The translations under genes were made by a program, and so were the position numbers. Under the pieces are notes generated by a model, which saw only the letters and a program-made list of their open reading frames with translations, did not search any database and had not been told where the DNA came from. Of a stretch of 33,480 nt of DNA, positions 6,425 to 12,144 are shown piece after piece; within the stretch, counting starts at the first letter, position 1; each line of letters begins with the position of its first letter. The stretch comes from a virus. The stretch is taken from IMG/VR virus record IMGVR_UViG_3300028591_000144. One strand, given 5' to 3'.

Positions 6425-6472
6425 ATGTTAACTATTATCATCTTCATGATTCTTGGATCGTTATTTGACTAA
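6425..6472 (+). CDS. tiny hydrophobic peptide MLTIIIFMILGSLFD (15 aa)
   Basis: SD AAGGAGATAG. Conserved in 3 copies (also 10447 and 12094), each followed by a terminator. Confidence 0.55.
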   Translation: MLTIIIFMILGSLFD

Positions 6473-6477
6473 TAATT

Positions 6478-6510
6478 AAAGGAAGGGTAAATCCCTTCCT
6501 TTTTTTTTTG
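6478..6510 (+). terminator. rho-independent terminator
   Basis: ggaagggtaaatcccttcc + T10. Confidence 0.85.
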
Positions 6511-6548
6511 ATAAATGAAAATCTACAATATTACTTTATATATTTCAA

Positions 6549-6590
6549 CCGCACGTGCTGGGTAGGGCTGGGCAGCAAAAGCCGAGTTTT
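6549..6590 (+). repeat. Module-A G-triplet box copy 7 (canonical CCGCACGTGCTGGGTAGGGCTGGGCAGCAAAAGCCGAG)
   Basis: Identical to copies 8 and 9. Confidence 0.75.
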
Positions 6591-6860
6591 CAATAATAAA
6601 AGTAAGCAAAAAACACAAAAACAAAAGCGATAATCCCAAGAGTAAAGATAAAATTCCTATAATTAAAACGCTCTGTATAAAAAGCCCTTATTTATTGGGC
6701 TTTTCAACATATGCTAAAAAAAATATTGCAAAAAAAATTTTTTTGATATAAGTTGTGATTGTCAGCGAGAAAACCGTTGTTAACATAGCAAGCAAGTAAG
6801 CAGACAAGTTGTGGTTTAATCAGTATTAAAAATTATTATTGAAAGGATTTTTTCCGCACT

Positions 6861-7328
6861 ATGAAAATTACTTCTATCTCTCAACTTATTGAAGCTCTGT
6901 ATGCTATCCTTGCGATTCTTGACTCTATCTTTCGTGACCCCGTAGATACTGAAGCCATTAGCGATTACGTATACGAAAACGTCTTGGAAGCTTTGCGTAA
7001 ACAGCGCAAACAGTATATTTATACTGAATCTCCTTATCAGGTTATAGAGGATTTTGATGCTGATGATAGCAATAGCATTAAAATTGATGGCAAAAGACAT
7101 TTCTTCCCTGCCTATTATCAAGAGCAACTTCATTTCCTGAATTGGTTTTACTCAGATAAACGGCACTATGAATTTGATCAGGATATTCGAAAAGCAGAGA
7201 ACATCTCTAAAGATGTTGACGAATGTCTTGAAGCTCTTAACCGTGTAATTGCTGGCGACTTAAATGATGAGATTTATGAAATCATTGGCAAGTTAAACGA
7301 CTTGCGAGATAAATATAATCTCAAATAA
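6861..7328 (+). CDS. hypothetical protein (155 aa)
   Basis: ORF track. SD GAAAGGAT. Confidence 0.65.
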   Translation: MKITSISQLIEALYAILAILDSIFRDPVDTEAISDYVYENVLEALRKQRKQYIYTESPYQVIEDFDADDSNSIKIDGKRHFFPAYYQEQLHFLNWFYSDKRHYEFDQDIRKAENISKDVDECLEALNRVIAGDLNDEIYEIIGKLNDLRDKYNLK

Positions 7329-7336
7329 TTGCTAAA

Positions 7337-7363
7337 GGTAGACGGAACGCCTTAAAGACTCCG
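7337..7363 (+). promoter_or_regulatory. box B copy 6
   Basis: Exact 27-mer. Confidence 0.75.
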
Positions 7364-7402
7364 CAACTTATAAAATACATTTTTGAAAGGACTTTTCTCA
7401 TC

Positions 7403-7726
7403 ATGTTTGAAAACATCAATAAGCACTCCGCTGGTTTCTTCGCTGTTGACATCGCTAATCTTGCCACTAAAGTGGGGGCCTTGTATGAAACTGCCAAAGC
7501 CCATTATGATGAAGTGTACACCGCCCATCCCGATGACTCCGATGATGAAGCCTTTGACCTTTGGTACGATGAGCAGGATGAAGCTTTTGAGTCTTATGAA
7601 ACCTTTTCTCAGCTTGTAGACTTGATCGATGATATCAAAGAGTTGAATGTCGACAGCTGGGAAGAGCTTAGTGCAAAACTCGATCTTCTGGCTGACGCTG
7701 TCGAAAGCTTAGGTTTAGACGATTAA
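7403..7726 (+). CDS. highly acidic small protein (107 aa), DNA-mimic-like composition
   Basis: ORF track. SD GAAAGGAC. D/E-rich. Confidence 0.65.
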   Translation: MFENINKHSAGFFAVDIANLATKVGALYETAKAHYDEVYTAHPDDSDDEAFDLWYDEQDEAFESYETFSQLVDLIDDIKELNVDSWEELSAKLDLLADAVESLGLDD

Positions 7727-7734
7727 CTCTAACA

Positions 7735-7761
7735 GGTAGACGGAACGCCTTAAAGACTCCG
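7735..7761 (+). promoter_or_regulatory. box B copy 7
   Basis: Exact 27-mer. Confidence 0.75.
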
Positions 7762-7800
7762 CAATTTTATAAAATACATTTTTGAAAGGATTCTCTTATT

Positions 7801-7989
7801 ATGACAACTAAAACTTTTATCTTTATTGTAGGCGATCATGAATTCATTAGCAATGAGCCTTTTGGCCCTATGTTTAAAGAGGCTCGCCAGCTTGCTAATG
7901 ACCTCAGTCTTCCTCTTTATAGAAAGAAGATTGAAGAATCTTTAGATGAATACCATCCCCAGTCAGGCTTCTTTACTGCCGTAAAATAG
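7801..7989 (+). CDS. hypothetical protein (62 aa)
   Basis: ORF track. SD GAAAGGAT. Confidence 0.6.
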   Translation: MTTKTFIFIVGDHEFISNEPFGPMFKEARQLANDLSLPLYRKKIEESLDEYHPQSGFFTAVK

Positions 7990-7998
7990 AGAACTAAA

Positions 7999-8025
7999 GG
8001 TAGCCGGAACGCCTTAAAGACTCCG
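7999..8025 (+). promoter_or_regulatory. box B copy 8 (GGTAGCCGG variant)
   Basis: One substitution relative to consensus. Confidence 0.7.
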
Positions 8026-8064
8026 CAATTTTATAAAATACATTTTTGAAAGGAAGTAAACAAA

Positions 8065-8286
8065 ATGGATAACAACATGATCCTCATTATAATTGATGAA
8101 TGTGGTGACGAGGTTGAGGTTGACCGCTACTGCCTTCAGCTTGACCTTGATGAAGACGAGTTGGAAATCTGGAAAGCTCGAAAGGTCCAGCAAGCCTATG
8201 AGCATTATCCAGAAGCGCGGGGCTTCTACTGGGAAGACCGCCGCAACTGGAACATGCTGATTGCAGGCATGCTTCACTGGATGTAA
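8065..8286 (+). CDS. acidic small protein (73 aa)
   Basis: ORF track. SD GAAAGGAAG. Confidence 0.6.
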   Translation: MDNNMILIIIDECGDEVEVDRYCLQLDLDEDELEIWKARKVQQAYEHYPEARGFYWEDRRNWNMLIAGMLHWM

Positions 8287-8287
8287 A

Positions 8288-8317
8288 AAGGCCGGGGGTA
8301 ATACCCCGGCTTTTTTT
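8288..8317 (+). terminator. rho-independent terminator
   Basis: ggccggggg-taata-ccccggc + T7. Confidence 0.85.
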
Positions 8318-10580: not shown

Positions 10581-10852
10581 TTAAACTGTAAAATAAAACA
10601 AAAAAAGATAAAACAAAAGCGGATAAAACAAAAGAGCAAATAAAAATCCCGAATTATTTTTAAGATTGCTCAAAGTACCAGTAAATACAGGGCTTTTGAA
10701 GATATATTAAAAAAAATATTGCAAAAAAAATTTTTTTGATATAAGTTGTGATTGTCAACAGGAAGCAAAACAAAAAACCTGTTGCCCCATAGGATAAGGT
10801 CGGGTTACAATTCTTATCCATTTCAAAATTTTTTCTTTAAGGAGTAAAAGCC

Positions 10853-11230
10853 ATGACTTACTTCAAAAACAATGAATGCCACGAGCTGTATGACACCATA
10901 TATGACATCCTGACTGATTGCATTGACCACAACATTGAGTCTGCTGAACTCAATCTCTCCGTCCGCAAAGATGGCATTGAAGCGAAAATCAATGACATTT
11001 ATGCGAAGTATACCACTGAATACCACTTCGGAGAGTGGAAAGCCTCCGACTTTGCCGAAGACAACTTCAGCGATGAAGACTATAAGACCTATGAAGCTCT
11101 CTCTTCTGAGTATCAAGATCTTGAAGAGTATCCCGATAAAGAGCTCCCGAAGCTTCGTAAACTTCTTAAAGAAGCTCAGGATATCGCCAAATTCCTCATT
11201 GAGGAATATGACGGCGAAATTCTTAAGTAA
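10853..11230 (+). CDS. acidic protein (125 aa)
   Basis: ORF track. SD TAAGGAGTAA. Confidence 0.65.
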   Translation: MTYFKNNECHELYDTIYDILTDCIDHNIESAELNLSVRKDGIEAKINDIYAKYTTEYHFGEWKASDFAEDNFSDEDYKTYEALSSEYQDLEEYPDKELPKLRKLLKEAQDIAKFLIEEYDGEILK

Positions 11231-11239
11231 AACTCAGCA

Positions 11240-11266
11240 GGTAGACGGAACGCCTTAAAGACTCCG
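11240..11266 (+). promoter_or_regulatory. box B copy 12
   Basis: Exact 27-mer, here immediately followed by a degenerate G-triplet box. Confidence 0.75.
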
Positions 11267-11278
11267 CAAATAAAAAAC

Positions 11279-11320
11279 CGTCCGTGCTGGGCTGGGGTGG
11301 ACTTCAAAAGCCGAGCTTCT
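11279..11320 (+). repeat. Module-A G-triplet box copy 11 (degenerate)
   Basis: ccgtccgtgctgggctggggtggacttcaaaagccgag. Confidence 0.6.
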
Positions 11321-11409
11321 CAGTCTAGATAAAAATGCAATTTTTACAAAACAAAATTGCGTTTAATTTTTAAAAAATTAAAATCCTAATATTTCGGAGG
11401 AATATTAAA

Positions 11410-11493
11410 ATGTATGAAATTTCAATAAAAAGTTCTAGCATCGATTTAGATATCATCCAATTCACTAAGTTACTTAATATTGCAGTAGAATAG
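11410..11493 (+). CDS. possible small protein (27 aa)
   Basis: SD TCGGAGGAAT 8 nt upstream of ATG. Manual ORF. Confidence 0.35.
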   Translation: MYEISIKSSSIDLDIIQFTKLLNIAVE

Positions 11494-11595
11494 GAAGATT
11501 TGCCTACTATTGAATTTTATAAAAAACTAATAAAAAAATTGCAAATTATCTCTTAGATATACAGATATCTTGAGCAAGAAAAGATAATTTAATCA

Positions 11596-11634
11596 GCCGT
11601 CCGTGCTGGGGCATTAGGTGGACTCATCAGCCGT
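11596..11634 (+). repeat. Module-A G-triplet box copy 12 (degenerate)
   Basis: ccgtccgtgctggggcattaggtggactcatcagccg. Confidence 0.55.
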
Positions 11635-11713
11635 ATTTACGACAATAATAACTTCACCAAAAGAAGAAAAAGAAATAAAACATTTACCATAGCTACTCTT
11701 ACTTCCCATAATT

Positions 11714-11752
11714 GCGCGCTTCGGCAGCGGTCCTACGCCAAGCTGGCGAAGC
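11714..11752 (+). repeat. hairpin-C family member (degenerate)
   Basis: gcgcttcggcagc...gctggcgaagcg followed by AGTTTAT. Confidence 0.5.
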
Positions 11753-11837
11753 GAGTTTATGATTTGTTTATAATATACAAAAATCTCACTCAAAATCACT
11801 ACACAATTGTGCATAAAGTAAAATCACTTATTCCCTC

Positions 11838-11866
11838 TTGACTTCTGGTTGATTATGCGTTATAAT
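11838..11866 (+). promoter_or_regulatory. sigma70-type promoter TTGACT-17-TATAAT
   Basis: Hexamers and 17-nt spacer read from sequence. Confidence 0.75.
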
Positions 11867-11883
11867 GGGCTTGCCCGAAGAGG

Positions 11884-11906
11884 AAAAAAAAAAAAAAAAA
11901 AAAAAA
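11884..11906 (+). repeat. A23 homopolymer in 5' UTR
   Basis: 23 consecutive A between -10 and SD. The paralogous unit at 15070-15110 has agaacaaaaaa instead. Confidence 0.8.
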
Positions 11907-11919
11907 TAAGGAGATCATT

Positions 11920-12078
11920 ATGGAAAATATGGCGTTTGAACTGATGGAAGCAGAAAACACTATTCTGGAAGATTATGAAGACTGGGAGCGCTATGAAGAA
12001 GACATGGCAACAAATCCTTATGCCCCTATTGATGATATCGACTATGATATTGCAATTCATCCTTGGGATTATGTCTGA
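11920..12078 (+). CDS. acidic small protein (52 aa), paralog of 15115-15285
   Basis: SD AAGGAGATC. About 85 percent nt identity with paralog. Below track cutoff. Confidence 0.65.
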   Translation: MENMAFELMEAENTILEDYEDWERYEEDMATNPYAPIDDIDYDIAIHPWDYV

Positions 12079-12093
12079 AAGGAGATCACGTCA

Positions 12094-12144
12094 ATGTTAA
12101 CAATCATCATTTTTTTCATTCTTGGAAGTCTTTTTGAAGCATAA
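12094..12144 (+). CDS. tiny hydrophobic peptide MLTIIIFFILGSLFEA (16 aa)
   Basis: SD AAAGGAGATCACG. Third member of the conserved tiny-peptide family. Followed by hairpin 12154-12181. Confidence 0.5.
   Translation: MLTIIIFFILGSLFEA

Follow-up and report, generated by a model that had tools for sequence, protein, structure and literature searches.

IMG/VR virus record IMGVR_UViG_3300028591_000144, a stretch of 33,480 nucleotides referred to here as the window, is an array of short plus-strand operons whose genes are small ORFans; repeated regulatory elements are numerous in it. Three of these operons end in a mini open reading frame (ORF) of 15-16 codons, denoted c1, c2 and c3, which together encode a family of hydrophobic peptides. 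A preliminary description of the DNA argued from the conservation of the peptides that these ORFs are translated; comparisons among the copies and with their orthologs strongly support translation and the action of selection on the amino-acid sequence. Each mini-ORF is the last cistron of a separate plus-strand operon, with a terminator hairpin 4-10 nt downstream. The features of the three loci are listed below.

6412-6417, plus strand: Shine-Dalgarno (SD) sequence of c1, AAGGAG, 7 nt ahead of the ATG; anti-SD duplex of -9.3 kcal/mol
6425-6472, plus strand: mini-ORF c1, MLTIIIFMILGSLFD, with a TAA TAA double stop; fourth and final cistron of an operon that starts near 5340
6478-6510, plus strand: intrinsic terminator of c1 (hairpin 6478-6502), AAAGGAAGGG-TAAAT-CCCTTCCTTT, 10-bp stem and T-run; -14.6 kcal/mol
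10447-10494, plus strand: mini-ORF c2, MLIIIVFFILGSLFD, TAA stop; third and final cistron of an operon that starts near 9610
10499-10538, plus strand: intrinsic terminator of c2, A-run, AGAGAAGAGT...ACTCTTCTCT 15-bp stem, T-run; -17.2 kcal/mol
12077-12084, plus strand: SD sequence of c3, GAAAGGAG, overlapping the TGA stop of the upstream gene; -13.0 kcal/mol
12094-12144, plus strand: mini-ORF c3, MLTIIIFFILGSLFEA, TAA stop; second and final cistron of a two-gene operon
12155-12190, plus strand: terminator hairpin of c3 (hairpin 12155-12181), GAGAGGAG...CTCCTCTC, 8-bp stem and interrupted T-tail

Direct reading of the window bears out the positions and translations first given for the three ORFs, as well as their placement directly before a terminator in three different operons, with the caveat that the T-tail of the c3 terminator is interrupted (CCGTATTTT). 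The poly-T tract after the c1 terminator (6503-6512) varies from T10 to more than T20 among contigs, and several assemblies break there. The mini-ORFs lie 15-70 nt from the preceding gene. The initial claim that each copy has an SD sequence holds for c1 and c3, whose SD strengths are typical for genes in the window (gene median -9.6 kcal/mol), while the SD of c2 is weak (-5.5 kcal/mol). The ENA gene calls for the identical contig contain nothing at the three positions, consistent with the expectation that gene callers overlook peptides of this size; all standard gene callers apply a cut-off above 15-16 codons, and the mini-ORFs are indeed uncalled on public contigs.

Read in all six frames, the window contains no copies beyond c1-c3. 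A profile hidden Markov model built from the c1-c3 peptides matched only c1-c3 orthologs when all stop-to-stop segments of the window, of 26 related loci and of the phage phAss-1 region were scanned. A generic screen of both strands for ATG-initiated ORFs of 10-25 aa with a grand average of hydropathicity (GRAVY) of at least 1.8 and an SD sequence returned c1 and c3 only, and hence such ORFs are not a by-product of the AT-rich sequence of the window.

Selection on the peptide

Pairs of paralogs differ at 12-19 of 45 nucleotides, mainly at third codon positions, and are identical at 12-13 of 15 residues. The differences at first, second and third codon positions number 6, 2 and 11 in one pair, 3, 1 and 8 in another, and 3, 1 and 10 in the last. 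As described at the outset, the changes are mostly synonymous or conservative: each pair has 6-9 codons with a synonymous difference and 2-3 with a non-synonymous one. A serine codon alternates between TCG and AGT among the paralogs. The probability that equally many random nucleotide changes would keep such amino-acid identity is at most 1.5e-5. Non-synonymous divergence (dN) is 0.19-0.34, and synonymous divergence (dS) is saturated. The mini-ORFs c1 and c2 share 26 of 45 nucleotides, equal to the best chance match in shuffled sequence, and 12 of 15 residues; the sequences on either side of the three copies cannot be aligned. The non-coding repeat elements of the window display the opposite pattern and are nearly invariant as DNA.

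Orthologs are present in syntenic metagenome contigs (given L numbers), which are close relatives only, and the evidence they provide consists of six substitutions. Five ortholog variants of c3 differ at four sites, all synonymous, with zero indels, and the final 33 nt of c3 are invariant in five close orthologs. The c2 ortholog (L016, L017) carries one synonymous change, GGG to GGA. The window and L005 have ATG as the start codon of c1, whereas GTG takes its place in five contigs (L002, L004, L006, L007 and L008) that derive from four metagenome assemblies and one sequencing run. Within the c3 region, the share of variable columns is 8% in the mini-ORF, 21% in the 52-aa gene ahead of it, 22% in the terminator and 33% in the spacer, which also contains indels; the identity of the 52-aa protein drops to 85% among relatives. 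The 8-bp stem of the c3 terminator is kept in relatives via one compensatory change, G-C to A-U. Frame-disrupting changes in related genomes had been set beforehand as grounds for rejecting the peptide, and no indel or nonsense change is found in any ortholog.

The spacer indels lie just upstream of the c3 start, none being inside the ORF; the distance from SD to ATG is 9 nt in the window but 8 or 7 nt in the relatives. With respect to the gene ahead of it, c3 thus occurs in each of the three frames, and it therefore initiates independently and is not a read-through extension. A fusion of the 52-aa protein to c3 by stop-codon read-through was considered separately; it is in frame in the window, but was rejected because the spacers of relatives differ by 1 or 2 nt. 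The comparative evidence alone makes a strong case for a translated, selected micro-gene in a lineage without a cultured member.

Searches for homologs

The peptide family is, as far as these searches detect, without a homolog outside this phage lineage. Megablast of positions 5000-13000 against GenBank phages gave no match, and Rfam at gathering thresholds gave none on the window. The exact back-translated peptide pattern is absent from IMG/VR, JGI metagenomes and GTDB genomes, and a relaxed pattern in the same three collections retrieved a single giant-virus contig with an internal TAA, a chance match. A tblastn search of the concatenated peptides against GenBank phages gave no match, in which the low-complexity filter may have masked the query. 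Within the window, the 3' ends of two paralogs of the 52-aa family (12035-12079 and 15242-15286) encode ISTMILQFILGIMSE and ILTMILQFILGTIFN in another frame; these stretches match the mini-ORFs at 27-28 of 45 nt, near the 95th percentile of the shuffled null. An origin of the mini-ORFs by frame-shifted duplication of the 3' end of a 52-aa gene is thus a lead only.

Source phage and genetic code

The same sequence and syntenic variants of it occur in bovine and rumen-type metagenome assemblies (ENA, Logan); the samples of ERZ27256846 and ERZ941483 are examples of rumen material with this phage. Three flanking minus-strand genes in L005 (223-1509, 1559-1915 and 1972-2931; also in L002 and L004) contain 12, 3 and 6 in-frame TAG codons, and the genes with in-frame TAG that flank the region in relatives terminate with TAA or TGA. 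By this pattern of codon usage the lineage is TAG-recoded, probably with code 15. A 428-aa protein of the relatives, with TAG read as glutamine, displays 34.5% identity to its counterpart in phAss-1, assigned in GenBank to the 'Caudoviricetes code 15 clade' (PMC10607447), and 36% identity to counterparts in 134-142-kb Enterococcus phages. The TAG codons and the likeness to phAss-1, a distant relative, and to the Enterococcus phages place the window in a large, uncultured rumen phage of Bacillota in which TAG is recoded. Despite the recoding of the lineage, the window contains no suppressor tRNA; a tRNA-Ser (anticodon CGA) at 26135-26215 is located among small early-type genes.

The stop codon is TAA in 21 of the 24 window genes checked, all three mini-ORFs included, and TAG in one (7801-7989). 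The ends of the mini-ORFs are therefore independent of TAG recoding. As the phage is TAG-recoded, an N-terminal extension of c1 via an in-frame TAG two codons upstream was considered; it was rejected, with no start codon between the preceding TAA and the ATG.

A putative membrane micropeptide

The peptides have GRAVY values of 2.2-2.6 and 13 consecutive non-polar or small residues (L2-F14); the Gly-Ser pair is conserved, the C-terminus carries an acidic cap and basic residues are absent. The reading we favour, at a probability of roughly 0.6, is that c1-c3 are genuine coding micro-genes whose product is a trans-acting, membrane-embedded micropeptide that acts on the host. Ribosomes would initiate at the start codon of each mini-ORF, the final cistron of a polycistronic phage transcript from one of three operons, presumably early in infection. 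Inserted as a short helix into the cytoplasmic membrane of the host, the peptide would act there in trans, either through disturbance of the bilayer or formation of oligomers, or through contact of its small-residue face with a membrane protein of the host. Encoding it three times would increase the amount made, and the gene may move as a cassette from one operon end to another by way of the repeated junction elements.

Small hydrophobic products of short ORFs are a kind already known from bacteria and phages, and c1-c3 are at the extreme low end of their size. KdpF (29 aa), AcrZ (49 aa), MgrB (47 aa) and SpoVM (26 aa) are small regulators of larger membrane proteins. The mini-ORF peptides resemble them as single hydrophobic helices, in which the Gly-Ser face could mediate helix packing, but are about half their length and have no sequence relationship to them. 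A version of the toxin IbsC reduced from 19 to 15 residues, with at least 10 hydrophobic residues, is still membrane-toxic (PMC8309996), and a membrane-active peptide of 15-16 aa is therefore physically plausible. Should the host membrane prove to be its site of action, the peptide would be one of the smallest effectors that phages naturally encode, near the experimental minimum for a membrane-active helix.

Several points weigh against the favoured reading. A hydrophobic stretch of 13 residues falls short of a normal membrane span, the SD of c2 is weak, and the ortholog evidence comprises six substitutions among close relatives. The mini-ORF is the last cistron in three of three copies (a chance of ~1/24 if placed at random among cistrons), which could indicate a role in cis. 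Finally, as there is no homolog of known function, the assignment to the membrane is drawn entirely from composition.

Alternative explanations

The terminal position is the observation from which a cis-regulatory explanation starts. Translation up to a stop near the terminator, or arrest by the nascent peptide, would modulate termination, read-through or 3'-end stability, and the peptide would have no function in trans. All three copies lie directly ahead of a terminator, the U-rich RNA of the ORFs pairs weakly with the purine-rich 5' arm of each terminator, and the size and the richness in isoleucine, phenylalanine and leucine are like those of classical leader peptides. Attenuator leaders such as pheL (15 aa) and ErmCL (19 aa) share this size class and composition and likewise have a terminator hairpin directly after the ORF; they differ in that the mini-ORFs are located at the end of an operon and not ahead of a regulated gene. 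The alternative pairings reach -7.8 to -8.9 kcal/mol versus -13.7 to -17.2 kcal/mol for the terminators, and their partners differ for each copy. An antiterminator of comparable stability overlapping the ORF was not found at c1-c3. Operons of ordinary genes also end with a terminator over the stop codon (5105-5130, 8285-8316), so that the closeness of stop and terminator is generic in the operons of the window and not specific to the mini-ORFs.

The downstream arrangement also speaks against regulation by read-through. A hairpin and a promoter-like element belong to the next operon itself: c1 and c2 are followed in order by a G-rich element, a second hairpin, a promoter-like element and then the next operon, and a separate promoter-like TTGACT-17-TATAAT lies at 12396-12424 downstream of c3. 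No read-through-dependent gene was found downstream of c1-c3, the operons that follow all being preceded by promoter-like elements. Moreover, the entire peptide is conserved, including the glycine, the serine and the acidic end, and not merely a run of regulatory codons. The role as a regulatory mini-ORF, one of those proposed in the preliminary description, is hence not favoured and appears unlikely, although arrest by the nascent peptide could still be at work.

A second explanation places the peptides among leaderless hydrophobic signals of the leaderless communication peptide (LCP), short hydrophobic peptide (SHP) or ComS type, which are secreted, re-imported and sensed by an RRNPPA-type receptor, in this case a receptor of the host or one from another part of the phage genome. 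The mini-ORF peptides would fit such a signal, being ultra-short, leaderless, aliphatic and aromatic, and encoded by unannotated ORFs with an SD in a Bacillota phage. The general properties of the LCP class (e.g. MWLLLLFL) are alike, in that LCPs and SHP/ComS are also encoded by unannotated, SD-preceded ultra-small ORFs without a signal sequence (PMC10518010). However, LCPs are defined by an adjacent tetratricopeptide repeat (TPR) receptor of the RopB clan and are mostly 8-10 aa, whereas SHP and ComS are processed from precursors with a basic N-terminus that the mini-ORF peptides do not have. The window has no receptor-like gene: its 33 kb contain no plus-strand ORF longer than 190 aa, and its sole long minus-strand ORF (335 aa) has no Pfam or PHROG match. 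No TPR receptor is present among the called genes of related loci, and a survey of the LCP class detected no receptor-peptide pairs in phages or prophages (PMC10518010). A phage-encoded orphan LCP/SHP-like pheromone or mimic, made early from three operons, is accordingly given little credence; if true, leaderless communication peptides would be extended to phages for the first time, and the phage would have a way to hijack the quorum sensing of its host.

The resemblance to type I toxins, noted at first reading, is retained in its physical part only. The peptides agree with the class in size and composition (<60 aa, hydrophobic, putative transmembrane helix), and are shorter than any natural member (IbsC, 19 aa). 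Like the Ibs family of E. coli (18-19 aa) and ShoB, they are ultra-short, hydrophobic, the size of a single helix and encoded in several copies per genome, multiple copies being typical of Ibs/Sib-type loci. In the predicted folds of c1 and c3, the SD is paired with the U-rich ORF. A toxin restrained by an antisense RNA is nevertheless very improbable here. No antisense RNA gene was found: promoter matches on the minus strand are at chance level only (9/12) and none is common to the copies, the promoter scan being a weak test. The flanks of the three copies are unrelated, the genes all lie on the plus strand, the SD-sequestering pairings differ between copies, and the mini-ORFs are co-transcribed operon cistrons without a promoter of their own, not stand-alone genes. 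There are no cationic residues in the peptide and there is no sequence similarity to Ibs or ShoB, from which the mini-ORFs differ as well in their acidic C-terminus and in their host (Bacillota versus Enterobacteria).

An untranslated DNA- or RNA-level repeat that is open in one frame by accident is just as improbable: the ORFs are very short, the window is rich in non-coding repeat families, the SD of c2 is poor and the 3' part of c3 is invariant, but nucleotides diverge to chance level while amino acids hold, true DNA elements of the window are near-invariant, indels occur beside the ORF and none inside it, and the start is kept as ATG or GTG.

Repeat elements and cassette exchange

A 28-nt intercistronic element, AGGTAGACGGAACGCCTTAAAGACTCCG, is present in 12 near-invariant copies between 1610 and 11266 of the window (e.g. 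7734-7761 and 10385-10412). The mini-ORFs c1 and c2 are each preceded by a copy, as are other genes of 1600-11300.

6370-6397, plus strand: 28-nt element upstream of c1, GGGTAGACGGAACGCCTAAAAGACTCCG
10385-10412, plus strand: 28-nt element upstream of c2, at a cassette junction

The 28-nt element is also found in L021, L025 and L002 and is identical in more distant relatives; a search in IMG/VR gave no match. It could be a recombination, processing or protein-binding site. Another family is a G-rich element, AACCGCACGTGCTGGGTAGGGCTGGGCAGCAAAAGCCGAG, of which eight copies (2042-11335; e.g. 6547-6586 and 10539-10578) follow each operon terminator in the first 11 kb; in 1600-11300 a second hairpin and then a promoter-like element come after it. 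It has neither a consistent reading frame nor a supported structure, and RNA structure was looked for in both elements without support.

The slot after the 76/77-aa gene and its 28-nt element is occupied in three ways. In the window, L016 and L017 it contains c2 and its terminator, in L002 and L025 a 26-aa CxxC...CxxC ORF, and in L021, L022 and L024 a 102-aa gene. The entire c3 operon (promoter, 52-aa gene, mini-ORF and terminator) is absent upstream of the DUF8033 gene in L029 (1-430), where a different gene end and a G-rich element replace it. The alternative genes in the c2 slot and the absence of the c3 operon in one relative point to the mini-ORF as one module among several exchanged at repeated junctions. 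By this comparison of arrangements, the mini-ORF behaves as a gene cassette that is swapped at repeated junction elements, and mini-genes participate in the cassette shuffling of a phage early region.

The 26-aa ORF, MCEDCILFGRCEGCAEHDGRWTEDED (L002 13912-13992; L025), is itself an unannotated mini-gene with two CxxC pairs and a strong SD; the 9-bp hairpin after it lacks a T-run. A longer inter-operon repeat of ~110-330 nt, in 9-10 copies between 287 and 10790, consists of a hairpin, AAAGCCCCT...GGGGCTTTT, then AAAAAAAATATTGCAAAAAAAATTTTTTTGATATAAG, then a partly conserved 5' untranslated region (UTR). AAAAAAAATATTGCAAAAAAAATTTTTTTGATATAAG is an A8T7 palindrome with a TGnTATAAG extended -10-like motif, a promoter class that differs from the TTGACA-17-TATAAT sites predominant in 12900-33480.

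Neighbouring genes and other small ORFs

The genes adjacent to the mini-ORFs, the promoter-like site of the c3 operon and the small hydrophobic ORFs elsewhere in the window are as follows.

2996-3079: small hydrophobic ORF, 27 aa, SD-preceded, unrelated to the 15-mers
6195-6359, plus strand: 54-aa gene immediately upstream of c1
10147-10377, plus strand: 76-aa gene immediately upstream of c2
11838-11866, plus strand: sigma-70-type promoter-like site of the c3 operon, TTGACT-17-TATAAT
11920-12078, plus strand: gene for a 52-aa acidic protein, first cistron of the c3 operon
14753-14863: small hydrophobic ORF, 36 aa, SD-preceded, called as a gene, unrelated to the 15-mers
31186-31311: small hydrophobic ORF, 41 aa, SD-preceded, unrelated to the 15-mers

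Pfam and PHROG searches with 20 neighbouring proteins returned only a match to GNAT acetyltransferases and phage families of unknown function. The 5' UTR of the c3 operon contains an A24 homopolymer (11884-11907). Positions 5898-6122 hold a paralog of the 74-aa gene at 4613-4837, which a premature stop (6030-6032) shortens to 44 aa in this genome; it is intact (74 aa) in L002 and L005.

The three other short transmembrane peptides that had been grouped with the mini-ORFs by proximity are real, SD-preceded ORFs, but their sequences are unrelated to c1-c3. More distant relatives (L011, L013) carry a 35-36-aa gene at the position of the 36-aa ORF, after the acetyltransferase-like gene.

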